64,000 nt of DNA from an uncultured delta proteobacterium (GCA_963804165.1 CAWDPO010000030.1:32001-96000); one strand, 5' to 3'; counted from the first letter of the stretch, positions 7,252-27,942 are shown. Translations and numbers: made by a program. The notes: a model not told the origin generated them from the letters alone.

Positions 7252-7252
7252 T

Positions 7253-8599: not shown

Positions 8600-8635
8600 A
8601 GTTCCATCCTATCATTGATGAGTCGCTCTCGGACC

Positions 8636-8699: not shown

Positions 8700-8762
8700 C
8701 GACTCAGGCTTTCATGGCTGAGCGACAATCTGCTAGTCAATCTTTTATCAACCATCGCAGTG

Positions 8763-9764: not shown

Positions 9765-9785
9765 TGTTAAAAGAACAGCTCATAG

Positions 9786-9810
9786 CTGTCAAGCAAGCTC
9801 GGCTTGACAG
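9786..9810. promoter_or_regulatory. Perfect palindrome CTGTCAAGC-N7-GCTTGACAG between divergent genes (operator and/or back-to-back -35 boxes)
   Basis: Read directly; contains TTGACA on both strands. Confidence 0.5.
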
Positions 9811-9897
9811 TCGCGCGAGAATGCGGCCACATAGCACATGTGCAGGGCGACGCCTTGTCGCCAAGAAAGCACCGAAACTGAGCCGGAGGTTGCCCCA

Positions 9898-11335: not shown

Positions 11336-12229
11336 ATGGTTCAAAACGTTCAAGCAGTTCAAGACGTTCAAATCGTCGGAGAACTGCCCGGAGGTCTACA
11401 CGCCTTGAACGAATTGAACGTCTTGAACGATTTGAACAAAGCAAAGCCTCTGGTTGAGATCCAGGGGGTCTCGAAAAGTTTTCATAAAACCGTCAAAGAT
11501 ATCACGACCGAGGTTAAGGCGTTGGCGGATGTGAGTCTTTCCATCCGAGAGAAAGAGTTTGTCAGCATCATTGGCCCCAGCGGTTGCGGCAAAACCACGC
11601 TGCTAAAAATGATCGACGGCCTGATCCCGTACGACAGCGGCAAGATCGTGATCGATGGCAAGCAGGTCACCGCGCCGGGTCCTGACCGCGCCGTGGTATT
11701 TCAAGCTTTTGCTTTGTTGCCGTGGCGTACGGTCCTCGCCAACGTGCAGTTCAGCCTCGAACTGCGTAGACTGCCCAAAGAAGATCGAACAAACATTGCG
11801 CGCGACTATCTGAAACGCGTCGGCTTGGCCGATTTCGAAAATCACTACCCTCACGAGCTTTCGGGCGGCATGCAGCAACGCGCCGGTCTGGCCCGCGCGC
11901 TGGCGGTCAATCCGTCGATTCTGCTCATGGACGAACCGTTCGGCGCCGTCGACGCGCAAACCCGACAACTCTTGCAGGAAGAGCTTTTGGAGCTGTGGCA
12001 GCGCGAGCGCAAGACGGTGATTTTCATCACCCACAGCATGGACGAAGCGGTGTATCTTTCTGATCGCGTCGTCGTCATGACGCCGCGGCCGGGCAAGGTG
12101 GCCGAAATTCTCGACGTGCCGCTGCCGCGCCCGCGTGTCTCTGAAGAAGTGCGCCGCGACGGCAAATTTGTCGAATTGACCAACTACATTTGGGAAAGTC
12201 TGAAAAAAGCGATGGAGAACCATCATTGA
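11336..12229 (+). CDS. NitT/TauT-type ABC transporter ATP-binding protein with repeat-derived N-terminus
   Basis: GPSGCGKT, LSGGMQQR, LLMDEPF. Confidence 0.93.
   Translation: MVQNVQAVQDVQIVGELPGGLHALNELNVLNDLNKAKPLVEIQGVSKSFHKTVKDITTEVKALADVSLSIREKEFVSIIGPSGCGKTTLLKMIDGLIPYDSGKIVIDGKQVTAPGPDRAVVFQAFALLPWRTVLANVQFSLELRRLPKEDRTNIARDYLKRVGLADFENHYPHELSGGMQQRAGLARALAVNPSILLMDEPFGAVDAQTRQLLQEELLELWQRERKTVIFITHSMDEAVYLSDRVVVMTPRPGKVAEILDVPLPRPRVSEEVRRDGKFVELTNYIWESLKKAMENHH
11339..11437. repeat. GTTCAA x4 / TTGAAC x4 hairpin at 9-nt period, in-frame in the CDS
   Basis: Units at 11339/48/57/66 and 11405/14/23/32. Confidence 0.9.
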
Positions 12230-12981
12230 ATAGCCGATTTGGCACCCATATTCTCTCCATTCTTTCGCTCGCAATCTTATGGGAGGTTGTCGGACGGGCG
12301 ATGGATTCCACGCTCATCCCGCCACTATCACAAATCGGCGCGGCTTGGTGGAAACTCTTTAGCAGCGGCAAACTACTCTCTAACCTGGGCGTGAGTCTTA
12401 CGACGTTGGCCATCGGTTTTTGCCTCGCGGCGGTGATTGGCGTTGTCCTAGGACTCCTCATGGGGCGATTTCGTGCCGTCGAGCATTTTTTAGATCTTTA
12501 TGTCAACGCGCTAATGTCGGCACCGACGACCGCCTTTGTTCCGGTGCTCATCCTATGGTTCGGACTCGGCATCGAATCGCGCATCGCCGTGGTTTTTCTT
12601 TTCGCGGTATTCGTCATCATCATCAACACAATGACCGGCGTTAAACAGGTCGACAACGTTCTTGTCGAGATGGCACGCTCCTTCGGCGCTCGAGAGAAAG
12701 AAATCTTTTTCATGATCATGCTCCCCGCCGCCCTTCCGGCGATTATGGCCGGTCTTCGGCTCGGCATCGGCCGCGCCGTAAAGGGCATGGTGACAGCGGA
12801 GATGCTGCTCACGCTCACCGGCATCGGCGCCATGATCATGCAATACGGCTCGTCGTTCGCCACTGATTCGCTCTTTGCCGTGATCTTAACGATCTTGATA
12901 ATCGCGATGATCACGATGAAGCTGGTGCAATGGGTCGACCAGCGGCTTACCGGATGGAAAGTGGAAATCGCCGTCGAGTAG
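12226..12981 (+). CDS. NitT/TauT-type ABC permease
   Basis: Multi-TM; EMARSFGA..LPAALP loop; start overlaps ATPase stop. Confidence 0.92.
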   Translation: MNSRFGTHILSILSLAILWEVVGRAMDSTLIPPLSQIGAAWWKLFSSGKLLSNLGVSLTTLAIGFCLAAVIGVVLGLLMGRFRAVEHFLDLYVNALMSAPTTAFVPVLILWFGLGIESRIAVVFLFAVFVIIINTMTGVKQVDNVLVEMARSFGAREKEIFFMIMLPAALPAIMAGLRLGIGRAVKGMVTAEMLLTLTGIGAMIMQYGSSFATDSLFAVILTILIIAMITMKLVQWVDQRLTGWKVEIAVE

Positions 12982-12987
12982 TAAAAA

Positions 12988-13128
12988 CGAAATTCGAAAT
13001 ACGAAACTAGAAACAAATTCAAATGATCCGAAAAGAACAAAATTCTAAACGGAACCGTTTCGGATTTTGATATTTGGATTTGAGTTTCTCCGTTTGTTTC
13101 GGATTTCGAGCTTCGAATTCGGATATTT
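12988..13128. repeat. CGAAA/TTTCG 7-nt-unit hairpin repeat
   Basis: CGAAATTCGAAATACGAAAC ... GTTTCGGATTTCGAGCTTCGAATTCG. Confidence 0.75.
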
Positions 13129-13217
13129 AATGACGGTGAAACAACTTTTTACCGCGGTCAAATCCGAGGCCGGCAACGGAATAATTTAGAACAACAATTT
13201 AACGCAGGAGAACGCTC

Positions 13218-14201
13218 ATGACTAATTCACTCGCGAAATTATCGATGCTGCTCTTCATCATTACCGTTGGTTTCACCTGGGGTGCAGAGGCGCAAGCACA
13301 AAAGAAAGTGCGATTCGCTTACCCTTCATCGGCGGACATGGGCGATATCCCTTCGCTGCTCGCATGGGAGCAGCTCAAGAAACAGGGGATCGAAGTCGTA
13401 CCGACGTTTTTCCCCAAGACCGACTTGGCCGTTCAGGCCGTCGTTGCCGGCGAAGCCGATATCGGTTCCGCCGCCGGCATCGCCGTCGTGAAGGCGGTCG
13501 AGAGCGGCATGAATATTCGCGTCATCGGAGAGCAAGTGCGCAACGAATGGCAGCTCGTCACTCCCGTGTCTATCAAAGATGTCAAACAACTGGACGGCAA
13601 ACGGGTCGGCTACCATGCGCCGATCACGGTTACCGAAGCGCTGGTCAAATGGATGGCGCAACATTACAAGATCACCCCCAACTGGATGATCATCCCCGGT
13701 TCGGACGTGCGCGCCGAAGCTCTGATGCGCGGCCAATTGGACGCCACGCCGGCGGAGATCGGCGATGTGTTGAATATTTTGAGCGCCAAGCCCGGGCAGT
13801 TTCACGTGTTGATCTCTTACGCCAAGACTTTTCCCCAGCTTATCGGTTCTATGTATTTCGCCCGCGCCGATTACCTGCAAAAGAACGCCGCAACGGTTGA
13901 AACCGTGCTCGAGGCGATTCTCCGAGCGCATCGCAGTGCTGAAGAGCGCCCCGCATCGGTCAAAGAAAATGCTTTAAGACTGCTGCCTGAAACAAAGCCG
14001 GAGCTCGTCGAGGCGATCGCGGCAGCCTACAAAGAGCTGCGCATCTGGGACATCAACGGCGGCGCCGGCAAAGAGCGCGGCGATGCGAGCATTAAATTCT
14101 TCGAAGAAGCGGGACTACTCAAGAAAGACGTCGTCAGCTTCAAACAGGCCTTCGACACCGGCCCTCTGGACAAAGTGCTCAAAAAGATCGGACGCAAATA
14201 G
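13218..14201 (+). CDS. NMT1/TauA-type ABC substrate-binding protein
   Basis: Signal peptide AQA; AVVAGEADIG, LDGKRVG. Confidence 0.9.
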   Translation: MTNSLAKLSMLLFIITVGFTWGAEAQAQKKVRFAYPSSADMGDIPSLLAWEQLKKQGIEVVPTFFPKTDLAVQAVVAGEADIGSAAGIAVVKAVESGMNIRVIGEQVRNEWQLVTPVSIKDVKQLDGKRVGYHAPITVTEALVKWMAQHYKITPNWMIIPGSDVRAEALMRGQLDATPAEIGDVLNILSAKPGQFHVLISYAKTFPQLIGSMYFARADYLQKNAATVETVLEAILRAHRSAEERPASVKENALRLLPETKPELVEAIAAAYKELRIWDINGGAGKERGDASIKFFEEAGLLKKDVVSFKQAFDTGPLDKVLKKIGRK

Positions 14202-14205
14202 AGTA

Positions 14206-14949
14206 ATGAAGGCGAGCACGCTTAGAATCATCTCGCTCCTCACGCTCGCCGCGATCTGGGAGATCGCCGGGCGCAGCGGCAACGCTCATCTGCTCCCGCC
14301 CCTTTCTAAAGTCATCACCGTCTGGGTGGAGCTGCTTATCTCCGGGCAGCTGTTCCAGGCGATATCTATCAGCTTTCAAGCTCTGTTTATCGGCTTTTTC
14401 ATCTCGGTCCTGTCCGGTGTGCCGCTGGGGTTGTTGATGGGCCGCTACCGCCGGCTCGAATCATTTCTGGAAATTTACATGACCGCATTGCTCGCGGTGC
14501 CGATGATTTCGTTCATTCCGTTTTTAGTGATCGCTTTCGGGTTAGGCCTGCACTCGCGCGTCTGGATCGTTTTTCTGTTCGCGTTCGTGATTATCGCGAT
14601 CAACACCACCGCCGGCGTGCGCAACGTCGATCCGACCTTGACCGAGATGGCCCGCTCCTTCGGCGCGCGCGAGAGCGAATTGTTTTTGAAAGTGATCCTG
14701 CCCGCCGCCATGCCGATGATCATGGCGGGCATTCGCCTCGGCATGGGGCGCGCCGTGCTCGGCATGGTCACGGGCGAAATGATTCTCGCCGTAGTCGGTT
14801 TCGGCGCCATGCTGATGACCTTTAGCGCGTCGTTCAATTCCAGCGCGCTGTTCGCGACCATTCTCACAATCGTGCTGCTCGCCGTTGCCTTGTTGTCGTT
14901 GATTCAGTATCTGGATCGGCGCCTGATGCCGTGGCGCACTGCGACTTAG
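14206..14949 (+). CDS. NitT/TauT-type ABC permease (second)
   Basis: EMARSFGA..LPAAMP; paralog of 12226-12981. Confidence 0.92.
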   Translation: MKASTLRIISLLTLAAIWEIAGRSGNAHLLPPLSKVITVWVELLISGQLFQAISISFQALFIGFFISVLSGVPLGLLMGRYRRLESFLEIYMTALLAVPMISFIPFLVIAFGLGLHSRVWIVFLFAFVIIAINTTAGVRNVDPTLTEMARSFGARESELFLKVILPAAMPMIMAGIRLGMGRAVLGMVTGEMILAVVGFGAMLMTFSASFNSSALFATILTIVLLAVALLSLIQYLDRRLMPWRTAT

Positions 14950-15220
14950 TACGTTGGCTCAGAAATTCGCTATCCAGGAATTTGCGTAGTAGCGTATCGC
15001 ATACGCCCGTTCTGGATGCCGGTTTTCACCGGCATGACGGAAAAAACACCGGCAGTGCTTAGACAAACTTCCAGCTAGCATCCGGCCGCTGCCGCACCAA
15101 CGTGACAACCGCAAGTTATTCATACCGTTGATATCGGCGAAAGCTTGGGATATGGCCCGCCATAGGCCCGAGGATCACCTTCACACGTGCCACCGAAGTT
15201 CTGTCTCGAGGAGAACCATC

Positions 15221-16225
15221 ATGAGTAGCCTTTTCTTTCGAGTCTTCGTTTCTTTCTTGTGCACACTGCCAATGCTGACGATGACCCATTCATTCGTCAA
15301 TGCGCAAACGCTGGAAAAACTCCGTGTCGCCTACACGGTGATCGCGCCGACTCAAGCCACGATCTGGACCGCCAAAGAGATCGGCTTTTACGCCAAGCAT
15401 GGACTCGACGTAGACTTGGTGTTGCTCGTCGGGGCGCCGCTCGCGGTCACCGCCCTGGTCGCCGGAGAAACTCCCGTTGTCCACGCCGGCGCCTCCGCCG
15501 TGGTCACCAGCAACCTCCAAGGATCCGGGGCCGTGCTGGTTGCGGGCGGAGCCAATCGCTTTCCCTACGTGCTTTTCGTCACCGACGAGATCAAACGAGT
15601 AGAAGACCTAAGAGGCAAGAAATTCGGCGTGAGCCGCATCGGCAGCGCGGACAACGCCGCAGCAGTCACCGTCCTGAACAGATTCGGAATCAAAGAGACC
15701 GACGTGACCTACGTGCAAGCCGGCTCGATTCCTGCGCGCCTCGCGGCGATGCAGACCAACGCGCTGCAGGCGACGCTCCTGCAAGCGCCGGAAACTCTGA
15801 AAGCCAAAGAGATCGGCATGCGCGCCCTGCTGGATTTCACCAAGCTCGATGTCGAATGGCAGCAAAACGGCGTGGCCACCACGCGGGATTACATCAAGAA
15901 AAAGCCCGACACGGTGCGCCGTTTTATCAGGGCGTACGTCGAGGGCAGCCATTACAACCTGACGAATCCGAAGGGTGCACAAAAGATTTTACAAAAATAT
16001 CTCGCTATCAAAGACACCAAATCGGTCGAAGAATCCTATAACGAAATCGTCGCCAAACTGACGCTCAAAGTTCCCTACCCCACCGAGCCCGGTATCCAGC
16101 TCTACCTGGACCAGTTGAAGATCAAGAATCCCAAAGCCGCGCAGGCCAAACCGTCCGACTTCACCGATATCAGTTTCCTCAAAGAGCTGGAGTCGAGCGG
16201 GTTTGTCGAAAAATTATATAAATAA
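15221..16225 (+). CDS. NMT1/TauA-type ABC substrate-binding protein
   Basis: GAGGAG RBS; signal peptide; FYAKHGLDV, DLRGKKFGVSRIGS. Confidence 0.9.
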   Translation: MSSLFFRVFVSFLCTLPMLTMTHSFVNAQTLEKLRVAYTVIAPTQATIWTAKEIGFYAKHGLDVDLVLLVGAPLAVTALVAGETPVVHAGASAVVTSNLQGSGAVLVAGGANRFPYVLFVTDEIKRVEDLRGKKFGVSRIGSADNAAAVTVLNRFGIKETDVTYVQAGSIPARLAAMQTNALQATLLQAPETLKAKEIGMRALLDFTKLDVEWQQNGVATTRDYIKKKPDTVRRFIRAYVEGSHYNLTNPKGAQKILQKYLAIKDTKSVEESYNEIVAKLTLKVPYPTEPGIQLYLDQLKIKNPKAAQAKPSDFTDISFLKELESSGFVEKLYK

Positions 16226-16321: not shown

Positions 16322-16957
16322 CTAATTTTTGTAGATCACTATACGCAGATCTTTCCCCCGGCCCCCCTCCGGACAAGCGCTGATGCCAACCAGGCAATCC
16401 ATTTCGCAGCGGAGATCCATCATGTCGCCACCCAGCCGCGGCCGGGTCATCGAATAGCGCATGCTGCCGGTTTTGGCATTGATCGCCATGGTTTGAAAAA
16501 CATTGAGCGGGCTCGGCACGTCTTCTTTTGGTACTCCGTAGGGCTTCAAAGCCTTGGCGAGATTTTCCCAGCAACCGTGCTTGGGCGCGACGACTTTTTT
16601 TCTTCCCAATCTTTTCCAAACGCCGCCGTATATCTTGAAAATCTCGTCGCCCCATTTCTTGTAAAAAGAAGTGCTGCACATGCCCTTCTCCATGTCATGG
16701 GTGCCGCGGTACGTATCCTTCACGATCGTCTGCATGACGTTGTTGTATTTGGAAATCAGCACATCGCCGGTGGTCACGTAAATCTTACCTTGATCGACTT
16801 TGGTGCGCGCCTGATCGAAGCGCTCTTTGACGTCGCGCAGATTGAAAACAACGTAATCGGCGGTGGATTCACCGATGACCCGAATGGTCTCGCCTTTCTT
16901 GACCTCAAACGTCTTGCCGCTGTTGCTCTTGATGATGGACTCGCTGATAATCTTCAC
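16322..16957 (-). CDS. DUF1989 / urea carboxylase-associated family protein
   Basis: ERFDQART, GTHD..GMCS, HGCWENL, PLNVF, GISACP. Confidence 0.85.
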   Translation of the reverse strand: MKIISESIIKSNSGKTFEVKKGETIRVIGESTADYVVFNLRDVKERFDQARTKVDQGKIYVTTGDVLISKYNNVMQTIVKDTYRGTHDMEKGMCSTSFYKKWGDEIFKIYGGVWKRLGRKKVVAPKHGCWENLAKALKPYGVPKEDVPSPLNVFQTMAINAKTGSMRYSMTRPRLGGDMMDLRCEMDCLVGISACPEGGRGKDLRIVIYKN

Positions 16958-17073
16958 TGTGCCTCCATAGATAAAGTCGTAATCGTGGCTGATAAATTAG
17001 CCGATGAATCCGTGCAATATCAAGGTGGCAGCGCGCATTCTATCTGCCGATCTGGGCGCGGAATGGAATCCGA

Positions 17074-18351
17074 TTACCAACGGAAAAGATTCACCACTCC
17101 CAGGCTGATCCAGGGCACATAGGTCACCAGCAGGGTGACCAGGGCGAGCACGAGGGTGAAAGGCCATCCTTGCTTAAAGACGTCCCAGAACGAGACGCGC
17201 GCAATCGCGGCGGTGGTGAACAAGACCGTCGCCACCGGCGGAGTTTGCTGTCCCACGCCGAGGTTGATCGTCACGATGATACCGAAATGAATCGGGTCTA
17301 CACCGATCTGCCGGATCAGCGGCATCACGATCGGAACGATCAGGATGATGGCGGCGGCCGAATGGAGAAACATTCCTGCGACAAAGAAAAAAAGATTCAG
17401 GAATAAAAGAATCAGATACTTGTTGGAAGTCGTTTCCAAGATCATCCGGGCAAACTTTTGCGGAATCTGCTCGCTGGTAAGGTACCAGCCTAAGACTGCC
17501 GAGGAAGCGACGATGAGCATGACCACCGAGGTCTGCGATACCGAGTCCCGCAGGATGCGAGGAAGCTCGCGAACCGGCAGTTCTCGGTAAATAAGAACGC
17601 CGATCAGCAACGCGGTCAGCACCGCGAGGGCCGCCACTTCCGTCGCCGTGGCAATCCCAAGAAAGATCCCGCCCCAAATCACGATCGGAATCATCAACGC
17701 CCAAAAGGCGTGGACCGTCGATCGGCCGACTGCGCGCAGAGAGAATCCTTGCTCCACGGGCAGATTGTACTTGCGCGCATAGTAGTAGCAGAGCGCCATC
17801 ATGGCGCCGCAGGCGATGAAGCCAGGGAGAAATCCGGCAAAGAATAGCTTGGCCACCGACACCTCGGCCATCCAGGCATAAATGATCATCGGGATCGACG
17901 GCGGAATCAGAATCGCCGCCGAGGCCGCATTGGAGACGATGGCCGCGCTCAAGGTCCTCGAATAGCCGCGCTTCTCCATCGCCGGAATCACCACGTTGCC
18001 GATCGCGGCGGCATCGGCGACCGATGAACCTGAGATCTCGCTCTGAATCATCGTCGCCACCACTGTCACCATCGCCAGTCCGCCGCGAACGAACCCCACC
18101 AGGCTGTTGGCCATATTCACGAGTCGAAGGGAGATTCCCGAAGTGTCCATCAAACCGCCCGCCAGGATGAAAAGCGGAATGGCCAGAAGAGGAAAGCTCG
18201 AGGCGCCGGAAAAAAGGTTCAGCGGCACGACGCTAAGCGACACGGTGCCCTTAAAGAACAGGAAAATAATCGCGGCGATGGAAAGGCCAAATCCGATGGG
18301 GACGTTAATGAGCGTGAGTAGAATCACTACTGCGAGGATGAGCCACTCCAT
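17074..18351 (-). CDS. dctM: TRAP transporter large permease
   Basis: FPLLAIPLFILAG, ISGSSVADAAA, IPPSIP, DPIHFG, TPPV. Confidence 0.95.
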   Translation of the reverse strand: MEWLILAVVILLTLINVPIGFGLSIAAIIFLFFKGTVSLSVVPLNLFSGASSFPLLAIPLFILAGGLMDTSGISLRLVNMANSLVGFVRGGLAMVTVVATMIQSEISGSSVADAAAIGNVVIPAMEKRGYSRTLSAAIVSNAASAAILIPPSIPMIIYAWMAEVSVAKLFFAGFLPGFIACGAMMALCYYYARKYNLPVEQGFSLRAVGRSTVHAFWALMIPIVIWGGIFLGIATATEVAALAVLTALLIGVLIYRELPVRELPRILRDSVSQTSVVMLIVASSAVLGWYLTSEQIPQKFARMILETTSNKYLILLFLNLFFFVAGMFLHSAAAIILIVPIVMPLIRQIGVDPIHFGIIVTINLGVGQQTPPVATVLFTTAAIARVSFWDVFKQGWPFTLVLALVTLLVTYVPWISLGVVNLFRW

Positions 18352-18842
18352 GCCGAATCTCCTCCCTTGCCGCTTTCATTCCCCGTCGCGATGCTGACGA
18401 ACCGCATCAGGCTGATTACGAGCATCAGGCCGCCGGTGATCGGCAAGACGCTATAGATCCAGCGCATCTTCACCCAAACCAACGAGACGGTGGTTTCATC
18501 GCCCATTTTCTGCATGATCAGCCAGCCGTGATAGAAGAGCACCGCCTGAAAACCGAGGACGCAGGATTCGGCAATCAACTCGACGACTTTTCTCGCGCTC
18601 GGCATGAACTGGTCGACGACAATTTCGAAGCCGATATGACGGCGCCGGTAGCTGGCGACAACCGCGCCGTAGAAGGTCAGCCACACGAGCAGAAAAGAAG
18701 CGAATTCGTCGTACCACGAAAGTGACGCGTTTAGGACATAGCGGTAGAAGACGCCGAGGCTGACGAGCAGAACCATAAGCACGAGGAGGAGCACCGCCCA
18801 GGCTTCAATCCAATCGACGAGTCGGCGAAAATATTTATCCAC
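18327..18842 (-). CDS. dctQ: TRAP transporter small permease
   Basis: RYVLN..SWYDE, WLTFYGA..HI; 4 TM. Confidence 0.92.
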   Translation of the reverse strand: MDKYFRRLVDWIEAWAVLLLVLMVLLVSLGVFYRYVLNASLSWYDEFASFLLVWLTFYGAVVASYRRRHIGFEIVVDQFMPSARKVVELIAESCVLGFQAVLFYHGWLIMQKMGDETTVSLVWVKMRWIYSVLPITGGLMLVISLMRFVSIATGNESGKGGDSAWSGSSSQ

Positions 18843-18977
18843 GGTGGAGATGCAAAAGGGCTAAGTGAGTTGATCCTGAGGATGACCACGCCTTTCGGAC
18901 AGCGTCAATTCCACTCGTCAGCCGTACCGGTCAGGACTGGGCGCTCGGATAAAATTCTTGTCTCGATCGCCTCTTGC

Positions 18978-19964
18978 TCATCGCAGCGACTGGATCAGTT
19001 TGACTAAATCCGTCGCGCCCGAGACCTCTTTGCCGAACTCTTCATAGATGGCCGCGGATGCCTTGATGAAGGAGTCCTTATCGACCTCGTTGGCTTTCAT
19101 CGGCGGTGCGAGTTTGCCCATCAGATCTTTGTCCAGCCGTTCGCCTTCCGAGCGAGCGAAGTCTCCGATCTCCCCAGCGATCCGGGAGAGCGTGGTTTGG
19201 CTATCCTTGGGAATCTTGTTCCAGGTATCTTCGCTGACCACCAGGTACGCGGGAGTATAAACATGGCCGCTCAGCGAGAGAAATTTCTGCACTTCGTGAA
19301 ACTTGGCGGACCAGATCTGCGGAAAGGGATTTTCCTGGCCGTCCATCACGGCCGATTGGAGCGCCGAGTAGACTTCGGCAAGCGGCATCGGCGACGGGTT
19401 GGCGCCGTAAGTCTTAAACATTTTGACCCGCCACACTCCGCCCGGCACGCGCAGCTTGATGCCTTTTAGATCGTCGGGCTTGACGATCGGCCGGACATTG
19501 TTGGTGATATGGCGAAACCCGTTTTCCCAAACCCCGAGGACTCTCAGTCCTTTCGCCGGCAGCCCGTCGAAAAGCTGCTTCTGGACCTCTTTGTTTTCGG
19601 CCACCTTCTTCATATGGGCGCGATTGACGATGATGTAGGGCATCTCGAAAACGCCGTACTTTTGTTCCACCGTGCTCATTACGGTGGACGGCACGAACAT
19701 CTCCGGCGCGCCGACTTTGATACCCCGGCTCATCTGTTCGTCGCTGCCGAGCTGGCTGGAGTGAAAGACCTTGACCTCCACCTTGCCTTGCAAGCTTGCG
19801 TTTACCCGCTTGGCGTACTCGTCCGCCGTGATGGCAAAGAGTGATCCCGGGAAGCCCACGTGGCCGAGCCGGATCGAGACCGGCTGCTGCGCTTGTAGCG
19901 GCGCCTGCCAGAGCGCTAGGCTTAATGAGACGATTCCAGTCAGGACACCGATTTTTCGCTTCAT
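18978..19964 (-). CDS. dctP: TRAP substrate-binding protein
   Basis: SQLGSD, ENGFRH, DLKGIKLRVP, EVYSALQ..DGQENP (carboxylate-binding Arg retained). Confidence 0.95.
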   Translation of the reverse strand: MKRKIGVLTGIVSLSLALWQAPLQAQQPVSIRLGHVGFPGSLFAITADEYAKRVNASLQGKVEVKVFHSSQLGSDEQMSRGIKVGAPEMFVPSTVMSTVEQKYGVFEMPYIIVNRAHMKKVAENKEVQKQLFDGLPAKGLRVLGVWENGFRHITNNVRPIVKPDDLKGIKLRVPGGVWRVKMFKTYGANPSPMPLAEVYSALQSAVMDGQENPFPQIWSAKFHEVQKFLSLSGHVYTPAYLVVSEDTWNKIPKDSQTTLSRIAGEIGDFARSEGERLDKDLMGKLAPPMKANEVDKDSFIKASAAIYEEFGKEVSGATDLVKLIQSLR

Positions 19965-19985
19965 GGGTTACTCCTCTCCGGATTA

Positions 19986-20687
19986 CTATTTTCGATTGCA
20001 AGCACGCTTCATGATGCGCTCTGCTCTGGTAATGTTAAATACGCCGCAGCTGCAGAAGCGGGCCATATAGCGCGCCGCCTCCTCGGGAGTCCGACGGTTT
20101 TCTCTTACCCACTCCAACATCTTTTTCGCGAAATTGGCCGAAACCATACCGTGGCCGCACATGGTGGAAAGTTCCAGAGTCGTCGCCTCCGGGAGTTTAT
20201 CCACCCGTCCGCTAAATCCGATGGAATATTCGACGCTGTGCCGGGCGATGCCGGCATCGTCGCAGCAACGCTTCGCCTCGTCGATGGGTGCGCTGATGTT
20301 TATGGAGATGCCCAGGTCAGCGGCTTTAAGCTCCTCGACAAATTGTTCCATGGCCGCGTAATTGTCGAAGACCGCAGCCACGGTCGTGTGTCCTTCGATT
20401 TCAGCGATGACCTGCTCGGCATCGGCCCGGTGATCCCGGCGCCAATGGGCCGATGGGTTTAGGTCTTGGCGCGGCCGGATGCTGCCGCCCTTGGTGGCGT
20501 CGCCGATGTTGACCGGCTGGTGCTTGAGCGCCAGACGCAGAAAGGTCCGATATTTCTCAACGAGGTCGTCGTCGTTGATTCCCCGGCTCGCCATCGCAAA
20601 GACAATGTAGTCGTCACGGATCGGTTCCGGATGCGGCGGAGCAGCGAAAGCGTAGTGTTCGCTGTAGCGGTGCAGAGTGTTGGTCAT
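19986..20687 (-). CDS. Uncharacterised protein with TMCGHG and CxCGxFN motifs
   Basis: Clean 233-aa ORF abutting the upstream Fe-S gene; Cys/His motifs suggest a metal site. Confidence 0.8.
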   Translation of the reverse strand: MTNTLHRYSEHYAFAAPPHPEPIRDDYIVFAMASRGINDDDLVEKYRTFLRLALKHQPVNIGDATKGGSIRPRQDLNPSAHWRRDHRADAEQVIAEIEGHTTVAAVFDNYAAMEQFVEELKAADLGISINISAPIDEAKRCCDDAGIARHSVEYSIGFSGRVDKLPEATTLELSTMCGHGMVSANFAKKMLEWVRENRRTPEEAARYMARFCSCGVFNITRAERIMKRACNRK

Positions 20688-21536
20688 CTATTTCCTAGCT
20701 TCCGCGTTCTTCGAATTTTGCATCGCGCCGGCATGTCCAAGACCCAAATTGGTTTTTCCGCGATAGGCTGGATATCCTTCCTGCTCGAGAATCTCGCCGA
20801 GCAAATCATTTCCCGCCGAGTCGCAGCGGGTGGAGACACCGACGCTGATCACGGTATCCACCTCGCCGGCAAGATCTCGGATGCTTTGCAGCACTGCAGA
20901 TACTCGCTCAAGAGGTGCTTTGATCTCAACGATGGCCGAAAGAATCTTTTCGTTGAGAATGTCCTCTCGAATCAGACCGCGGGAACGATCGGTCATCAGC
21001 GAAGCCACCGGGTTATTCTCTTCAAATTCAACGCCGAGTTGGGCCAGAGCGGTGGTGATGCGCTGGATGTCTCTGAACCGAGCGCCGACCCCGGGACGGC
21101 CAAATTCGACGACGAATCCCGCCTCGCCGTCTTTCACCCGATGGGTCACGTCGTTGGTTTTGACCTCTGCGGTGCCACGGCCGTGGATGCCCGTGGACTC
21201 GTGCGGCACTTGCGGATCGGAAAAGGCGCGGCGCACGATTCGAGGCCAGGCGAGTTCTTGCGGAACGATCGCGTCGGTGGGGCAGATATCCGGCTCGGGA
21301 TCGAACCTGAAACGGAAGAGCTTGGCGGCTCGCCGCACTGCGCGGACCATGAACGGATTCAGATGCTCCTTGGACATGCCGCGATAACAGGTGAAACATT
21401 CCACGCACTCATCGGTATTGATAGTTGCTCGCCCGATCGCCGGCTCGATGGAGATCGCTCCCATGGGGCAAATCGGCACGCAGTTGCCGCAGGCCACGCA
21501 TTTGTCGGGATCGATTTTCATCTCGTTCTCGCTCAA
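20688..21536 (-). CDS. 2x[4Fe-4S] ferredoxin-domain protein with uncharacterised C-terminal domain
   Basis: CVACGNCVPICP; CVECFTC-(~35 aa insert)-ICP; GRGTAEVKTNDVT. Confidence 0.85.
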   Translation of the reverse strand: MSENEMKIDPDKCVACGNCVPICPMGAISIEPAIGRATINTDECVECFTCYRGMSKEHLNPFMVRAVRRAAKLFRFRFDPEPDICPTDAIVPQELAWPRIVRRAFSDPQVPHESTGIHGRGTAEVKTNDVTHRVKDGEAGFVVEFGRPGVGARFRDIQRITTALAQLGVEFEENNPVASLMTDRSRGLIREDILNEKILSAIVEIKAPLERVSAVLQSIRDLAGEVDTVISVGVSTRCDSAGNDLLGEILEQEGYPAYRGKTNLGLGHAGAMQNSKNAEARK

Positions 21537-22735
21537 CCGTCGGACGCGGTTTCCAGTAGATAATTTTCCGCCGCAGCCAGGCCGGCACCGACGGGAATTT
21601 TAACGCCGAAACTTTTCAGCGCCATCTCGACGCCGGCGAGCGCGCCGAGAAGCTCAAGTTCATTTAAGCTTCCCAGGTGGCCGATGCGAAAAATCTTGCC
21701 TTTGACCTTACCCAGTCCGATGCCCAGGGAAAAATTCAGTCTCTTGTGCGCGTGCGCAACAAACGCATCGGAATCGAATCCTTCAGGCATGCAGACGGCG
21801 GTCAGCGTGTTTGAAAATTCATCCGGACTGCGGGCGAGGAGCTGCAAACCCATGGCCTGCACCGCGCGCCGGCAGCTTTCCGCCAATCGAGCGTGGCGGC
21901 GAAAGACGTTGGGCAGGCCCTCTTCACTGAGTATCGCGAGACTTTCCTTTAGGCCGAAGAAATGCACGGTGGCAGGGGTGGAGGGAAATTCGCCAAGACG
22001 ATTGCGCTCCAAGATCGGCGTCCAGTCCCAGAACGAACGCGGGCAGCGCGCCGATCTGCTCGCTTCTCGGGCGCGCTCGCCGATGGCCAGGATCGCCAGA
22101 CCCGGCGGCAACATCAGCCCCTTCTGTGCGCCGGCGAGAGCGACATCCACTTGCCAATCGTCGAAGCGAAAGTCGATGGAGCCCACCGAGCTGACCGAGT
22201 CCACCAAGAAAAGCGCCGGGTGTCGCACATGGTCGAGCGCGTGACGAATCGCGGCGATATCGCTGGTCACGCCCGTCGAGGTCTCATTGTGGACGACCAG
22301 CACGGCTTTGATGTCGTGTTGTTTGTCCTTCTCGAGCCGCTCTTCGATCCGCGCGGCGGAAACACCGGCACCATAGGGAAACTCTAGCAGTTCTACCTGG
22401 ACGCCAAACGATTCGGCGGTGCGGCAGAAAAGCGTGCTGAAGTGACCGTTCACGCAGCCCAACACCCGATCACCCGGTGACAGCGTGTTGACGATGCAGG
22501 CCTCCCACGCCGCAGTGCCCGAGCCCGGAAATACCGCTATGCGTCCCTCGGTGGTTTTGAAAACGTCCTTTAAGCCCTCGAGCACGTCCTTTAACAGTGC
22601 GGCAAACTCCGGTCCCCGATGATCGATCAGGGGCCGCGACATCGCCCGAACGATTCTTTCGGGAACCAGGGTCGGACCGGGAATTTGCAGAAACGGGCGG
22701 CCGGAAGTTCCTGGTAATTTACTTTGTGAAGCCAT
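21533..22735 (-). CDS. Class-V PLP aminotransferase (serine/alanine-glyoxylate aminotransferase-like)
   Basis: LQIPGPT, DHRGPEF, HNETSTG, DSVSS, AQKGLMLPPG, FRIGHLG. Confidence 0.92.
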   Translation of the reverse strand: MASQSKLPGTSGRPFLQIPGPTLVPERIVRAMSRPLIDHRGPEFAALLKDVLEGLKDVFKTTEGRIAVFPGSGTAAWEACIVNTLSPGDRVLGCVNGHFSTLFCRTAESFGVQVELLEFPYGAGVSAARIEERLEKDKQHDIKAVLVVHNETSTGVTSDIAAIRHALDHVRHPALFLVDSVSSVGSIDFRFDDWQVDVALAGAQKGLMLPPGLAILAIGERAREASRSARCPRSFWDWTPILERNRLGEFPSTPATVHFFGLKESLAILSEEGLPNVFRRHARLAESCRRAVQAMGLQLLARSPDEFSNTLTAVCMPEGFDSDAFVAHAHKRLNFSLGIGLGKVKGKIFRIGHLGSLNELELLGALAGVEMALKSFGVKIPVGAGLAAAENYLLETASDG

Positions 22736-22947: not shown

Positions 22948-23790
22948 ATGTCGGATCTCGCACAGGCTCCTTTTGAATCGGCCCGAAGCCAAGCCGATAC
23001 CGTCATCAAAGTTGAAAATGTTTCCAAAGTCTTCCAGACGCCGAGCCAAGAAAATCTCAGCGCGCTCTTGAAACATCGATTTGGAGATCCGCCCCGGCGA
23101 GTTTGTCACCGTCGTCGGACCGAGCGGCTGCGGCAAATCCACGTTGCTCAAGCTGATCGCCGGATTTTCCCCTGTCTCGGCGGGTCGCATCCTTTGTCAG
23201 GGCGATGAAGTGCGCGGGCTCAATACGCGAGTCGGTTATGTGCCGCAAGAGAGCAAACTTTTCCCGTGGCTCACCGTGGAAGAAAACGTCGGCTTCGGCC
23301 TTAATCCGAAGCGCTATTCGCGCACCGACCGCGAGCGACAAGTAAGCTATTTCATCAATCTTGCCGGCCTCTCCGGCTTTGAAAAATATTATCCGGCGCA
23401 GTTGTCCGGCGGCATGGGCAAGCGCGCTTCGATCATCCGCGCGCTCGCCTACGAACCGCCGGTAATCTTGATGGACGAACCGTTCGGTCCGCTCGATGCG
23501 CAAACGCGCATGGTGCTGCAGGATGAGCTGCTCAAAATCTGGGAACAGAAGCGCCAGACCATCTGTTTGTCACCCACGACTTGGTTGAAGCGGTCGCCCT
23601 CGCCGACCGCGTGGTCGTCATGACGCATCGCCCGGGAAAAATCAAAGATGTCATAAGGATCAATATGGCCAGGCCGCGCAATATTTTCGAGATTCACCGC
23701 CAGGAAGGTTTTGACGATGCTTATGGCCGCTTGTGGCAAATCTTTCGCCACGAGCTCAATATCGGGCGCGCCAGCGCGCAGGATTCATGA
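22948..23790 (+). CDS. NitT/TauT ABC ATP-binding protein, frameshifted near 23075 and 23565
   Basis: GPSGCGKST, LSGGM, LMDEPFG across three ORF pieces. Confidence 0.88.
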
Positions 23791-24641
23791 CCGATCAAGT
23801 CCGCCAGCCGCGCTCCGAGATAACTCGATCTATGCCAACGACCGCAACGGCAAAGTCGATCTTTTCGCGCACTGTCACGGTAACACTAATTCGCAGCGCC
23901 ATTGTAGTGGGTTTTTTCCTTGCCTGGGAATTCGCGTCCGGCAGATGGATCGAACCGTTTCTCATCAGCAGCCCCAGCCGTATTTTTACGTCTCTGTTCA
24001 CCGGTTTCTACTCGGGTGATTTGCTGCAGCACACCTGGGTGACTTTTTTAGAAATCGCCATCGGCTTTCCGGTCGGCGCTATAGCGGGCATCGGCCTCGG
24101 CTACAGTTTCGGCCGCAGCCGCTTGCTTGCCGAGATATTCGAACCGATCATTATTGCGCTCAACGGGATTCCGCGCACCGCGCTTGCGCCGCTTTTCATC
24201 GTCTGGCTGGGCATCGGCTTGTGGTCGAAAATCGGCGTGGTTTTTCTCCTTACGTTTTTTCTCAATTTTTTTAACACCTATACCGGCATGCGCCAGATGG
24301 ATCATGAATACGTCGACCTGGCGGGTCTCATGGGCGTCAAAGGTTGGAAGCTGACGTTTAAAGTCATCTTCCCGGCGATTTCTCCCTATGTCTTCACCGG
24401 CATTCGCACGAGCATCCCTTTCGCGGTGATCGGCGCCATCGTCGGCGAGTTCGTCGCCGCCACCGAAGGCGTCGGCTTCTTCATCCGCATGTCGGCGGGT
24501 ATCTTTAGAACAGCCGACGTCTTCGTCGGCATCATCGTCTTGATGATCATGGTGATCATCATGGACAAAGTAGCCGCGCTGGTCGAGCGCAGAGCGCTGC
24601 GCTGGCAGACGCAAACCGAACACATACAAATCCAGGCCTGA
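23787..24641 (+). CDS. NitT/TauT ABC permease
   Basis: ATGA overlap; PRTALAPLFIVWLGIG, GAIVGEF. Confidence 0.92.
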   Translation: MTDQVRQPRSEITRSMPTTATAKSIFSRTVTVTLIRSAIVVGFFLAWEFASGRWIEPFLISSPSRIFTSLFTGFYSGDLLQHTWVTFLEIAIGFPVGAIAGIGLGYSFGRSRLLAEIFEPIIIALNGIPRTALAPLFIVWLGIGLWSKIGVVFLLTFFLNFFNTYTGMRQMDHEYVDLAGLMGVKGWKLTFKVIFPAISPYVFTGIRTSIPFAVIGAIVGEFVAATEGVGFFIRMSAGIFRTADVFVGIIVLMIMVIIMDKVAALVERRALRWQTQTEHIQIQA

Positions 24642-24659
24642 AAGAAGGGAGAGCTAACG

Positions 24660-25835
24660 ATGGAAAGGCAGATGAAAATCACAGCTCGCAGTGGGCAGGA
24701 ATGCTTCGACAAGCTCAGCATGAACGGATACTTCTCACTGCTTTCACTCCTATCTTCGTTCGTCCTGAGCCTGTCGAAGGATTCCGAGAGAATGTTCCAG
24801 CGGTTTGCCGGGCTCACTGTAGCGACGATCATCGGGTTGGGCCTGAACATCGCCTCGCAGGCGCAAGCCCAACAGAGAGACATGCCCGAAGTCAGTATGT
24901 TGACCGCCGTGCCCAACTTCGCCTTCGCAGCGATCTGGGTTGCCGAGCAGCTCAAATATTTCGAGCAGGAGGGCGTCCGGATAAAAATCACGCCCGCTCC
25001 GAGCGGCTCGGTCTGTTTGAACGCGGTGGTCGGCCGCTCCACCAATTTCTGCGCGTCCACGTCAGAGGGACTCGTCCTGGCGAAAGTCGAGGGCGCGCCG
25101 GCGATTGCGATTCAAGCGCACAATCGCACGATGACGTTGAGCGTCGTGCTGCGAAAAGCGATCGTCGATAAATTCGGTCTCACCCGCGCTAGCCCCATCG
25201 GCGAGCGCCTTAAAGCGCTGACTCAGCTCGGCACCATCGGCGCAACCGGACCGGGGGCGGCCTCTGAACAGATATTTAAATTCCTAGTGAAAAAAGCCGG
25301 CGCAATTGGGACAATAATTAAGTTCGTCTACATCGGAGCGCCCGAACTTCCCGCTTCGCTGATGAACGACGTGATCGACGCCTATGCGCTTTCCCCGCCT
25401 TCGGCCGAAATCACCGAGGCTAGCGGCAAGGGCTACGTTCTGATCCCGCTGGGGAAGGGCGAAATTCCGGAATTGACAGATTACCCTTATGAAGTTCTCA
25501 TGGTCCGCCCGGATTACGTCGAAGCGAACCCGAAGATCGCCATGGCGGTGGCGCGGGCGATATCGCGCGGCGGCGCGCTGTTCCGCAACAAACCGGAGGA
25601 AGCAAAAGCCGCGCTGCGCGCCCACCGGCTCTCGGTCAAACTATCTTCCGAGGTCTTCGAGCTCTCACACAACATGGTCGCCGGCGCCATGCCTCCGTGG
25701 GGAACGATGAGCGCCGCGGGATGGCAAAAGGTCATCAACTTCGCCACCGGCGCCGGCATCGTCAAAGATCTGTCCCAAGCCCCGTCGAATAAAGAGGGCG
25801 TGCTCTGGACGAATAAATACGTCGGCAAGCCGTGA
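24660..25835 (+). CDS. NMT1/TauA-type ABC substrate-binding protein, N-terminus contains a MITE-like repeat
   Basis: AAGGGAGAG RBS; YFEQEGV, WTNKYV. Confidence 0.85.
   Translation: MERQMKITARSGQECFDKLSMNGYFSLLSLLSSFVLSLSKDSERMFQRFAGLTVATIIGLGLNIASQAQAQQRDMPEVSMLTAVPNFAFAAIWVAEQLKYFEQEGVRIKITPAPSGSVCLNAVVGRSTNFCASTSEGLVLAKVEGAPAIAIQAHNRTMTLSVVLRKAIVDKFGLTRASPIGERLKALTQLGTIGATGPGAASEQIFKFLVKKAGAIGTIIKFVYIGAPELPASLMNDVIDAYALSPPSAEITEASGKGYVLIPLGKGEIPELTDYPYEVLMVRPDYVEANPKIAMAVARAISRGGALFRNKPEEAKAALRAHRLSVKLSSEVFELSHNMVAGAMPPWGTMSAAGWQKVINFATGAGIVKDLSQAPSNKEGVLWTNKYVGKP
24693..24808 (+). repeat. MITE/REP element (CTTCGACAAGCTCAGC..GTCCTGAGCCTGTCGAAG), inverted copy of 34403-34538
   Basis: Colinear with the reverse complement of 34403-34538 over ~115 bp. 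Confidence 0.85.
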
Positions 25836-25907: not shown

Positions 25908-26454
25908 ATGCATTTTAATGCGGGAGCAATACTACCTCCACAGGTCACCAAAACGAACAATGCTCGACAAGTCGGACTCGTGCTCGATACGCTGCTTTTT
26001 CGGTTTAGCGACGAATTCGAACTTGATCCTTACATTGAGGTGTGCGATTGCATCGTGGAATCACGGAGCTTTTTTAAAAGAGGAAATAAGCGTTACGGGA
26101 AAACTGATCCGTCATGCGAGACATGCAACGGCACCGGAAAAATGAAGACCACTTACAACACATTCGCTTGCTTTGACTGGTGGGAGATCGGAGGAAACTG
26201 GGACGGCGACTTAGCAGGAATAACGCGAAAATCCAATACACTATGGCGTAATTGTGTCGTGGTGAGGGATCTGCCAAAAAACTACTATTTCTTTGCCTTA
26301 GTCACTCCTAATAAGAAATGGCACGAGCAGTGGCATTTTACAGAAAGGTAAGCGCACTGAAGAAAAGGAAATTGCACTGTGGCATGAGTTTCAAAAGAAG
26401 CTACTAGGAAGACATTCGGCCCGTCTAGTAGTTTTGATCGACTGCCACCGCTAG
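25908..26454 (+). CDS. Phage-type hypothetical protein, one frameshift near 26340
   Basis: MHF..ILP, CETCNGTG, YNTFACFDWWEIGGNW, ALVTP..WHE, ends VLIDCH in another frame. Confidence 0.6.
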
Positions 26455-26491
26455 AGCATCTGAAGCGCGTACCGTATTGGAGGACTGGCCT

Positions 26492-27103
26492 GTGAGTGCT
26501 AAAGAAGCAAGCAAGGAGAGTACCCGCACCACGCGCAAACTGTTTTCTTACGTGGTTGACCATGACGAAGGTCGTGCACCAAATCCATATTTCGGCTTCT
26601 GTACGCTATGCCTTTGTAAGCATCGAAAAACCAAAAAAAACCGCCAAAACGTAGTTGAAAGGGCTAAAGTTGGTGACTGGATCGTCGGAACAGGCGGTGC
26701 AAGCAAAAGGAGCGCAGGTCATGGCAAGATCATATATGCAATGCGGATTGATAGAAAAATTTAGACGGCTCGAATATTACCGAGATCCGACGTTTGCGAA
26801 GAAGAAAAAGGTGATCGCGGCGACAACTTGCGTCCCGAGAATTGCTTCCAAGAGACGCAGCAATTTGTGCTAATATCCTGCCACTATCGGTATTTCGGTA
26901 AAAAAGCGATTCCAATACCCAAAGCCAAATTTCCTGAACTTGAAAAAAGAGGACCGAGCTTTCGTAGCGACTTTCAAGGAGCCGTATATCTCACGCTTCA
27001 CGTCTTGGCTCAAAAAAAACTACAAGAAATGCGGCAAGCGCGGTGAGCCATGTTCGAGACCGAAGCCTCGTCGCACCGGAAACCCTAAAACGATATGCAA
27101 GTA
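26492..27103 (+). CDS. Nucleotide modification-associated domain 2 (Nmad2) protein, frameshifted
   Basis: LFSYVVDHDEGRAPNPYFGFCTLCLCK, VGDWIVGTG, IIYAM, VLIS..YRYFG. Confidence 0.8.
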
Positions 27104-27820
27104 GTGCTGCTGAGAGTTGGTATAGACACCGGCTCCGGAGGAATCCATGGACCGTTGTTCAGGGACGGTTCATTTAAATACGTGCCTATTAGGGACGGTT
27201 TCAACGGGTGCGGAATAAGCGATCAAACCTACGGGAATACGGACGCCATATATGGCAACAGAACTCTAGTTGATTATTTTCCTGAAAGAGTTCGCGAGAG
27301 TCGTCGGAATATACCAATCCATCACGACCCGGAGTTCCAGACATTCACCTATGGTGATCCGACACCGCCCAAACAAGGTCTCAGGAAGCTCCATAACGGG
27401 GATATGTTAGTCTTCTACGCGGGGTTGCACGGGTGGAATTTCGAATGTGCTCCGGCGTTATATATCGTCGGCTTTTTTGAAGTGGAGACAGCAGGGTTAG
27501 CAACGGATTTCAGCCAACGTGATCTTCAGAGGTATTTTGGGCAAAACTTTCATGTTCGGCACCCGTCCGTTTTTCGAAAGCAGAAGGATCGACTCGTTCT
27601 TGTCAAAGGAAATAAACGGAGTCGTCTATTGAAAAAGGCGCGGGTCATTAGCTCGGTTGGCGCCGACGTGAGGGGGAGGCCGCTTCATATTTTGTCTCCT
27701 GACATGCAAAAGATTTTTGGAAACTTCGATGGTCACGTCAGTATTCAGCGCTCGCCTCCCCGGTGGGTGGCCGAAAGATTTGTCGCCAAAGCTTCCGCAT
27801 TTGTTATGTCTTTACGCTAA
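27095..27820 (+). CDS. Nucleotide modification-associated domain 3 (Nmad3) protein
   Basis: LLRVGIDTGSGG..GPLF.DGSF.YVPI, HHDPEF..FTYGD, GDMLVFYAGL. Confidence 0.8.
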   Translation: MQVVLLRVGIDTGSGGIHGPLFRDGSFKYVPIRDGFNGCGISDQTYGNTDAIYGNRTLVDYFPERVRESRRNIPIHHDPEFQTFTYGDPTPPKQGLRKLHNGDMLVFYAGLHGWNFECAPALYIVGFFEVETAGLATDFSQRDLQRYFGQNFHVRHPSVFRKQKDRLVLVKGNKRSRLLKKARVISSVGADVRGRPLHILSPDMQKIFGNFDGHVSIQRSPPRWVAERFVAKASAFVMSLR

Positions 27821-27942
27821 GAACGATTATACGCACAATCACATCGAGGCATTAATTCTCCGCAAATGAATAGGCAACAAGCAATATACTTCCTAGGACT
27901 ACTAAGCTTGTCAAATAACCAAAGCCTGACACGGAGTCTGAG

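Follow-up and report, generated by a model that had tools for sequence, protein, structure and literature searches.

What do two conserved proteins of no described family do between a glyoxylate-type aminotransferase gene and a TRAP importer? The question is raised by an operon of seven minus-strand open reading frames (ORFs; 16322..22735) in a 64,000-nucleotide stretch of DNA from an uncultured delta proteobacterium (GCA_963804165.1, CAWDPO010000030.1:32001-96000), which we refer to as the window. The two central genes encode protein A, which begins with a ferredoxin module, and protein B. We argue that A and B probably form an undescribed enzyme. The reading that we favour, with a probability of roughly 0.55, is a two-subunit, ferredoxin-wired iron-sulfur redox enzyme for a small carboxylate imported by the TRAP system.

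Judged by sequence comparison, A and B are a real, widespread and conserved protein pair without a described family. An earlier reading of the window (the original prediction) could name no function for either protein, and this holds: in Pfam, NCBIfam, PDB, Foldseek and VIA-align searches, no characterised enzyme matched either protein over its full length. Conservation extends to the key cysteines, eight in A (36 relatives) and C177, C212 and C214 in B (81 relatives). The two genes also co-occur. In all 20 loci of our phylum sample (the window's own included), the A gene immediately precedes the B gene on the same strand, and A also immediately precedes B in 75 of the 76 orthologue loci whose upstream sequence is available. 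The orthologue loci are 80 of at least 561 genomic matches, and B is at a contig end in four of them. In the sole orthologue locus where A and B are apart (L091:5852-9675), a gap of ~2.3 kb with several small ORFs separates them, which may be an insertion. Among the 201 genomes of the phylum sample, B was found in 29 and the C-terminal domain of A in 30, including the same 29; the extra match is marginal (E 3e-5). Copy numbers of A and B match in each genome, up to 8-9. These genetics suggest that the two proteins bind each other.

The family is large. For B, 4,844 candidates were scored, and 4,553 clusters at 90% identity proved homologous; an exhaustive HMMER scan gave 584 representative clusters at 50% identity (385 at E <=1e-10). 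For A, 5,811 clusters out of 8,000 scored candidates proved homologous. With thousands of homologues for each protein, the observation is far beyond chance. The family spans several bacterial phyla and an Asgard archaeon, from soil, sediment and anaerobic lineages, and the window's pair is a member, with the motifs of A encoded directly upstream of a B protein that has M-T-x-x-x-H-R and C-G-H...C-x-C. The sources label relatives of A and B “hypothetical protein” or “ferredoxin”, bar a few evident mislabels, and the ESM Atlas returned only unnamed clusters. We found no description of the pair in the literature searched, a body that did not extend to subscription journals. Among five long relatives, four are A-B fusions; each is a single-sequence cluster, so they are possibly merged gene calls. 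A fusion of B to a C-terminal Fer4_11-type dicluster domain (P0290, 411 aa) forms a seven-member cluster from several sources. One further relative (P0281, 397 aa) has a weak Fer4 match after its B region.

The N-terminal part of A is the only part of either protein with a recognisable role. Pfam searches of A returned Fer4-type models only, at residues 3-59 (PF00037, 1.5e-9; PF13237, 3.6e-9; others above cut-offs). With these matches, its two cysteine motifs and the eight conserved cysteines, this part of A belongs to the 2x[4Fe-4S] ferredoxin domains of the Fer4 clan; the second motif is interrupted by 34 residues. PDB sequence matches are confined to this module, which VIA-align superimposes on 2x[4Fe-4S] ferredoxins such as 1dur and 7vzg (Z 6.4-7.1). 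Residues 93-277, by contrast with the module, have no Pfam or NCBIfam match. A domain with the motif GRGTxExKTNDVT had been noted in A, and GRGTAEVKTNDVT is indeed present. The alignment of 36 A relatives has 29 invariant columns, including the eight cysteines, with C11 nearly invariant (at least 90%). The 21 further invariant columns are mostly Gly, Pro and polar or charged residues. In the C-terminal domain they comprise S101, P103, G-R-G-T114-117, E119, K121, N123, G-R-P-G141-144, N-P170-171, S195, E199, K256, N258, G260 and G262, and thus the motifs GRGTxExKxN, GRPG, NP, S..E and KxNxGxG. In-frame stops were flagged close to the end of some A matches; the simplest explanation is that the longer query ran past the normal stop codons of these genes.

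In the AlphaFold model of A (predicted local distance difference test score, pLDDT, 84.6), a helix is modelled at residues 56-68, and the best Foldseek match has an E of 0.007. The invariant loops (residues about 105-125 and 250-277) are low-confidence parts of this monomer model, as expected if they are ordered only in an A-B complex; interface and active-site loops are often so. The C-terminal domain has a generic ferredoxin-like/ACT-like fold. Its best folds are the SerB ACT domain (3p96; Z 8.3, 79 residues aligned, root-mean-square deviation 3.0), a GcvR-like domain (Z 7.4) and aspartokinase regulatory domains (Z 6.2-6.6). One could therefore read A-B as a ligand- or redox-sensing regulatory module of ACT-like domains, and not as an enzyme. 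We regard this as hardly probable: the tool calls Z values in this range common among unrelated models, Pfam found no DNA-binding or signalling output domain in the pair, and several loci have separate GntR/FCD regulators.

B offers fewer landmarks. In its alignment (81 relatives), R7, G178, C212 and C214 are invariant, and M1, T2, H6, D26, G126, S128, H150, G157, G160, C177, H179, G215, N218 and R221 are at least 90% conserved. The predicted motifs TMCGHG, CC and CxCGxFN (here CSCGVFN) are all present, but the CC pair (C141-C142) is not conserved; of the cysteines, only C177, C212 and C214 are, together with the histidines H6, H150 and H179. The AlphaFold model is confident (pLDDT 90.7) and places the Cys3-His site on loops between helices. 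Searches of Pfam, NCBIfam and PHROGs gave no meaningful match to B, and the 81 relatives gave only scattered, chance-level matches to Pfam and NCBIfam. The best match among all PDB sequences has an E of 0.18 for the single sequence and 0.46 for the profile. Fold searches gave a best Foldseek E of 0.055 and a best VIA-align Z of 4.7 against 48,161 chains. Two candidate families were rejected. The CCG domain of HdrB, GlcF and LutA (PF02754) has no match in B or its 81 relatives at E <=0.01, and C141-C142 is not conserved. In genome scans, the model of the BFD-like [2Fe-2S] domain (PF04324) matches other genes but never those of B, even where a genome has as many as nine B matches, and hhalign gives a probability of 0.3% (E 0.22). 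The C-terminal domain of A and the N-terminal domain of B align with an hhalign E of 0.023 and a probability of 2%, a weak hint that the two may be ancient duplicates.

Where does the window's pair sit within this family? The second cluster motif of A had been described as carrying an insert of ~35 residues. The insert is real, but its size is 29 residues: 34 residues separate the third and fourth cysteines of the motif in 79 pairs, as against 5 residues in 16 paralogous pairs that are more distant (7 of the 102 pairs could not be scored). A maximum-likelihood tree of the 102 B proteins separates the 79 insert-bearing pairs and 6 unscored rows from the other 17, with branch support of 100/99, and the window falls in the insert clade. 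In these alignments and this tree, the 29-residue insert marks a well-supported subfamily. Its members come from Binatia, Rokubacteria/Methylomirabilota, Anaeromyxobacter, Bryobacterales/Solibacter and a Limnocylindrales metagenome-assembled genome.

The genomic context of the subfamily differs from that of the insert-less pairs. For every pair whose B gene has at least 6 kb of sequence on either side, we scored the genes up to 8 kb away from B: 37 insert-clade loci (the window included) and 11 insert-less loci. An importer of some type is found in 29/37 insert-clade and 8/11 insert-less loci. MFS importers (18/37) were not detected in the 11 insert-less loci, TRAP importers are present in 11/37 loci as against a DctM in 1/11, and TctA is present in 2/37 as against 8/11. 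A GlcD/GlcF-type flavin adenine dinucleotide (FAD)/iron-sulfur dehydrogenase accompanies 12/37 insert-clade pairs, a BhcC/D-threonine-aldolase-like pyridoxal phosphate enzyme 6/37, an amidohydrolase 4/37 and DUF1989 1/37; none of these four was detected in the 11 insert-less loci. Class-V aminotransferases are found in 8/37 and 2/11 loci, and class-I/II aminotransferases replace the class-V enzyme in L079 and L104. A Pyr_redox_2 flavoprotein and a Prismane/CODH-family protein are each present in 1/37 insert-clade loci and in 8/11 insert-less loci, and in the latter a Fer4_11 ferredoxin usually lies between the two genes. The full block consists of insert-less A-B with Pyr_redox_2 (~430 aa), Fer4_11 (~170 aa) and Prismane/CODH-family (480-578 aa) proteins, adjoining TctCBA and GntR/FCD genes (L029, L030, L031, L034, L026/L027). 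It is an undescribed multi-component redox system. Other arrangements were seen once or a few times. In L025:4688-12488, an A-B paralogue lies between genes for an aldehyde:ferredoxin oxidoreductase, a thiamine pyrophosphate enzyme (564 aa) and two family-III CoA-transferases, a layout reminiscent of oxalate/oxalyl-CoA metabolism. In four Binatia-type loci (L043, L047, L048 and L049, about 7620-8150), a Cu/Zn superoxide dismutase gene replaces the aminotransferase gene directly upstream of A.

These neighbours raise the possibility that A-B does no substrate chemistry of its own and only transfers electrons, as a specialised ferredoxin dedicated to the oxidoreductases encoded nearby (GlcD/GlcF-type or, in anaerobes, Pyr_redox_2/Fer4_11/Prismane). 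The 2x[4Fe-4S] ferredoxin is, after all, the recognisable part of A, B is fused to a further dicluster domain in some relatives, and the dehydrogenase and the flavoprotein/Prismane module recur at the frequencies given above. We consider this a real but minor possibility. About 185 residues of A and 170 of B lie outside the cluster motifs and include many invariant polar residues, beyond what a carrier needs. Most insert-clade loci have no oxidoreductase partner nearby. The window's pair has only the aminotransferase and the TRAP importer, with no other oxidoreductase in the operon and no such partner nearby, and the only close GlcDF orthologue in the window's genome is on another contig (C20), among uninformative neighbours; both facts favour an enzyme over an electron carrier. 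(Genes for a Tle1-like phospholipase-domain protein of the type VI secretion system, a CHAT-domain protein and a metallophosphoesterase lie near that orthologue; L117:14949-16073.) Furthermore, some genomes have up to nine A-B paralogues, each next to a different importer (TRAP, TctABC or MFS) and often a GntR/FCD regulator. This is the pattern of substrate-specific catabolic enzymes, and also favours an enzyme over a carrier.

If A-B is an enzyme, what does its operon say about the substrate? The original prediction linked uptake of a nitrogen-containing organic acid to transamination of glyoxylate or another 2-oxoacid. The link between uptake and transamination recurs in other lineages, and the window's aminotransferase is of the glyoxylate-using serine-glyoxylate aminotransferase (SGAT)/BhcA type; the nitrogen in the imported acid fared less well, as set out below. 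Among solved structures, the aminotransferase is nearest to serine-glyoxylate aminotransferase 6pk1 (388.9 bits). BhcA is the aspartate-glyoxylate aminotransferase of the beta-hydroxyaspartate cycle, a pathway that has dehydratase and imine-reductase steps. Against the NCBIfam BhcA model (NF045640), the window's enzyme scores 489.8 bits over residues 17-397, under the equivalog cut-off of 650, which places it in the wider SGAT/BhcA class-V group and outside BhcA itself. The TRAP system is complete: DctP, DctQ and DctM match PF03480, PF04290 and PF06808, and TIGR00787 and TIGR00786 exceed their cut-offs. The conserved arginine of TRAP DctP proteins contacts the ligand carboxylate. DctP of the window was predicted to have this residue, and its R172 aligns with the arginine of 4ovs and 7bbr, the two nearest TRAP binding proteins of solved structure. 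Even the nearest of these structures score no more than 175 bits, and a search by PDB code, in the part of the literature that it reached, returned nothing relevant on these entries.

The last gene of the operon, for a DUF1989 protein, was the basis for a more specific suggestion: that the operon imports a nitrogen-rich organic acid of the guanidino or ureido type, which A-B and DUF1989 convert, the latter acting like carboxyguanidine deiminase. The characterised DUF1989 proteins CgdAB are carboxyguanidine deiminases. The gene is on the same strand and starts 116 nt downstream of DctM, it also follows DctM in a 94%-identical locus (L038), and an amidohydrolase accompanies 10/79 insert-clade pairs. 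However, DUF1989 is found with only 2/79 insert-clade pairs, those of the window and L038. The protein has the DUF1989 domain, but it is encoded by a single gene and scores 83.6 bits against the UAAP model TIGR03424 (cut-off 284.7) and 74 against TIGR03425 (cut-off 205.95), outside the carboxyguanidine deiminase/UAAP1/2 group. No carboxylase or allophanate hydrolase was found in the operon by Pfam or flank annotation. On this distribution, DUF1989 is a lineage-specific add-on and not a conserved partner of A-B; with its scores below the UAAP/CgdAB-type cut-offs, it gives little guidance about the pair. Hence, a role for DUF1989 in the pathway is not supported, a carboxyguanidine-type substrate is very unlikely, and the case for a nitrogen-containing acid comes down to the aminotransferase and the amidohydrolase.

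The enzymes that recur around the subfamily may point to another type of chemistry. A-B could be a non-redox iron-sulfur hydro-lyase, in which a three-cysteine cluster with an open iron dehydrates a beta-hydroxy amino or hydroxy acid (serine, hydroxyaspartate or a tartrate-like compound) and the product passes to the aminotransferase. B has exactly three conserved cysteines, and the sizes of the two subunits and their ACT-like domains may be likened to those of the two-subunit iron-sulfur L-serine dehydratases. The BhcC/D-threonine-aldolase-like enzyme, the glyoxylate-type aminotransferase and GlcDF recur, and no BhcB- or BhcD-like gene was noticed in the insert-clade loci or found by Pfam in the window's operon; this would fit a replaced dehydratase step in a hydroxyaspartate-type route. 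Nevertheless, we think a hydro-lyase unlikely. Neither protein has a SDH_alpha/beta or Fumerase Pfam match, and the folds of iron-sulfur L-serine dehydratases and class-I fumarase-tartrate dehydratases are absent among the listed Foldseek and VIA-align matches, although a distant relation is possible. The conserved histidine near C177 could be a fourth ligand, and a pure hydro-lyase has no need of the two-cluster electron wire in A. In addition, a search of the window's genome gave no homologue of the BhcC-like aldolase, although at 81% completeness this does not imply its absence.

We return to a ferredoxin-wired redox enzyme. Gene order, coupling, conservation, co-occurrence, the lack of a known family or fold and the recurring contexts are observed; for the enzyme we infer the physical complex, the cluster types, the catalysis, its direction and the substrate, and likewise that it is an enzyme rather than an electron carrier. 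Through its two [4Fe-4S] clusters, the N-terminal module of A would relay electrons, in one direction or the other, between the enzyme and a soluble redox partner. B would hold a third metal or cluster site at Cys177, His179, Cys212 and Cys214. The loops of A that carry GRGTxExKxN, GRPG and KxNxGxG, the N-terminus of B (M-T-x-x-x-H-R) and the Cys3-His site would together line a pocket for the substrate where A and B meet. Judged by the recurring dehydrogenase, aminotransferase and aldolase, the substrate of the insert subfamily would belong to the network of 2-hydroxy, 2-oxo and 2-amino acids around glyoxylate. In the window, the reaction of the glyoxylate-type aminotransferase, whose gene lies immediately upstream, would either supply this substrate or consume it.

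Several observations weigh against this proposal. Fold searches recognised no catalytic fold or cofactor site in A-B, and both non-ferredoxin domains have alpha/beta folds of a generic ferredoxin-like/ACT-like type, which commonly bind ligands or have regulatory roles. The Cys3-His site of B could bind zinc and not an iron-sulfur cluster. No member of the A-B family is from a characterised organism. An aminotransferase, GlcDF or aldolase is present in only 15 of the 37 wide insert-clade loci, and 8 of the 37 lack an importer up to 8 kb away. The context was scored by single reference proteins at E <=1e-8, the 16 paralogue regions were hand-picked from 77 places, and loci from related organisms are not independent. 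The expression data speak for the proposal but call for caution. In a soil metatranscriptome library (X20), 23 short contigs match the operon, 3 at 95-99% and 20 at 90-95% identity, and fall on DctM, DctQ, DctP, B, A and the aminotransferase; these contigs show neither strand nor transcript ends, and DNA carry-over is possible. No contig falls on 16322-17605 (DUF1989 and the 3' part of DctM), which says nothing about expression. Thus, the library gives a weak hint that the operon may be expressed in close relatives. In a soil metagenome run (X1), which may be the source sample, 32 of 232 matching contigs are at least 99% alike to the window.

A bolder version of the proposal is tentative and rather improbable as a whole: A-B would be a new class of iron-sulfur enzyme, in which two ACT-like alpha/beta domains surround a His-ligated cluster fed by the ferredoxin module. 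In this subfamily, it would catalyse a ferredoxin-dependent step for C2-C4 hydroxy or amino acids derived from glycolate or glyoxylate, in soil bacteria (Binatia, Methylomirabilota/Rokubacteria, Anaeromyxobacter and Bryobacterales). Such a step would, for example, convert a beta-hydroxy amino acid (hydroxyaspartate or serine), replacing the dehydratase and imine-reductase steps of the beta-hydroxyaspartate cycle.

What is the significance of the pair? A-B is abundant, yet it has no family name or structure. Should it prove to be an enzyme, genome annotation and metabolic models at present miss a common step in the turnover of carbon in soils. The subfamily has a clean marker, the 29-residue insert, and a narrow context (glyoxylate-type aminotransferase, GlcD/GlcF-type dehydrogenase, BhcC-like aldolase, and TRAP or MFS importer), which together yield a short list of candidate substrates.

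All seven predicted minus-strand ORFs, from the aminotransferase through A, B and DctPQM to DUF1989, were recovered at the expected coordinates with agreeing Pfam assignments (Table 1). The ATG of B directly abuts the TAG stop of A, with AGGAAA just upstream, and by this arrangement A and B are translationally coupled. A 21-nt spacer containing GGAGAGGAG separates the stop of B from the ATG of DctP, and DctM and DctQ overlap by 25 nt. The aminotransferase and A had been said to overlap by 4 nt. That is true for a TTG start at 21536, but all A homologues begin M-x-I-D-x-x-K-C, seven residues ahead of the first cysteine, so the likely start is the ATG at 21521, 11 nt after the TGA of the aminotransferase. 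Consensus scans of the operon gave no convincing internal promoter or terminator.

Table 1. Genes of the operon and features of proteins A and B, in window coordinates.
Feature	Coordinates	Strand	Evidence
Class-V aminotransferase, SGAT/BhcA type, 400 aa	21533..22735	minus	Pfam Aminotran_5, 1.9e-19
Protein A, 277 aa from likely ATG	20688..21521	minus	ORF and homologue starts (282 aa from TTG at 21536)
A residues 1-92, 2x[4Fe-4S] ferredoxin module (CxxCxxCxxxC, then CxxCxxC...C)	21246..21521	minus	Fer4-family Pfam, PDB sequence and fold matches
A Cys45-Cys80 spacer, 34 residues, holding the 29-residue Arg/Lys-rich helical insert	21285..21386	minus	Alignment
A residues 93-277, C-terminal domain of no known family, without Cys	20691..21245	minus	Invariant columns
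Protein B, 233 aa, of no described family	19986..20687	minus	ORF; no library match
B residues 177-214, C177-G-H179 ... C212-x-C214, candidate third cluster/metal site	20046..20159	minus	Conservation
DctP, TRAP solute-binding protein, R172	18978..19964	minus	Pfam DctP, 7.4e-78
DctQ, TRAP small membrane subunit	18327..18842	minus	Pfam DctQ, 6.3e-31
DctM, TRAP large membrane subunit	17074..18351	minus	Pfam DctM, 2.3e-120
DUF1989 protein, 211 aa	16322..16957	minus	Pfam DUF1989, 1.7e-33

The genes that flank the operon (NitT/TauT-type ATP-binding cassette (ABC) systems, UbiD-family genes and a molybdenum hydroxylase) look unrelated to it. NitT/TauT-type sets with NMT1/THI5-like binding proteins lie on both sides (11336-16225 and 22948-25835, plus strand), and 9-12 of the 80 orthologue loci have comparable genes for an ATPase, a permease and an NMT1 protein. 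Upstream of the operon, the ABC ATPase at 22948-23623 (plus strand) is split across two frames: ORF 22948-23208 encodes the N-terminal strand and ORF 23081-23623 the part from Walker A onward. The split reflects a frameshift, a pseudogene or an error of assembly. Genes for a putative cyclase, a three-subunit CoxLMS-like molybdenum hydroxylase (3212-7161), two UbiD-family (de)carboxylases (7253-8599 and 9838-11331) and a luciferase-like monooxygenase (8763-9764) occupy 1935-11331, which may be an aromatic-acid catabolic island. At 26001-28000, GC content drops to 0.476 (0.54-0.61 elsewhere) and GC skew becomes positive; this segment may be foreign DNA.

How does A-B compare with known systems? 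HdrC/HdrB, GlcF and LutA/LutB offer an analogy: an iron-sulfur electron wire with a small cysteine-containing partner, encoded in operons that handle small organic acids. GlcD/GlcF-type fusions are themselves frequent neighbours of A-B in the insert clade. B differs from HdrB, GlcF and LutA in having no CCG match, no conserved CC, only the three cysteines and a histidine, and no fold match. The iron-sulfur L-serine dehydratases SdaAA/SdaAB are alike in their two subunits of ~280 and 220 residues, three conserved cysteines, ACT-like domains and amino or hydroxy acid context, but A-B has no sequence match to them and none of their folds is among its listed structural matches, and they lack the two-cluster ferredoxin wire of A. 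The C-x-H-x32-C-x-C of B resembles the C-x-C-x31-35-C-x2-C of the BFD-like [2Fe-2S] domain, and hhalign picks the corresponding register; B differs in having no Pfam match to this domain and the negligible profile-profile probability given above. The beta-hydroxyaspartate cycle (BhcABCD) with glycolate oxidase resembles the surroundings of the subfamily in its BhcA-like aminotransferase, BhcC-like aldolases and GlcD/GlcF-type dehydrogenases. It differs in that the window's aminotransferase falls short of the BhcA cut-off, the search of the window's genome gave no aldolase, and the operon has no BhcB or BhcD; A-B has no counterpart in the described cycle. A further likeness is to the clostridial-type 2x[4Fe-4S] modules that are fused to enzyme subunits (FwdF, RnfB, NuoI and AprB). 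Like these modules, residues 1-92 of A have two CxxCxxC...C motifs; A is set apart by the 29-residue insert before the last cysteine (in the subfamily only), its 185-residue C-terminal domain and its constant pairing with B.

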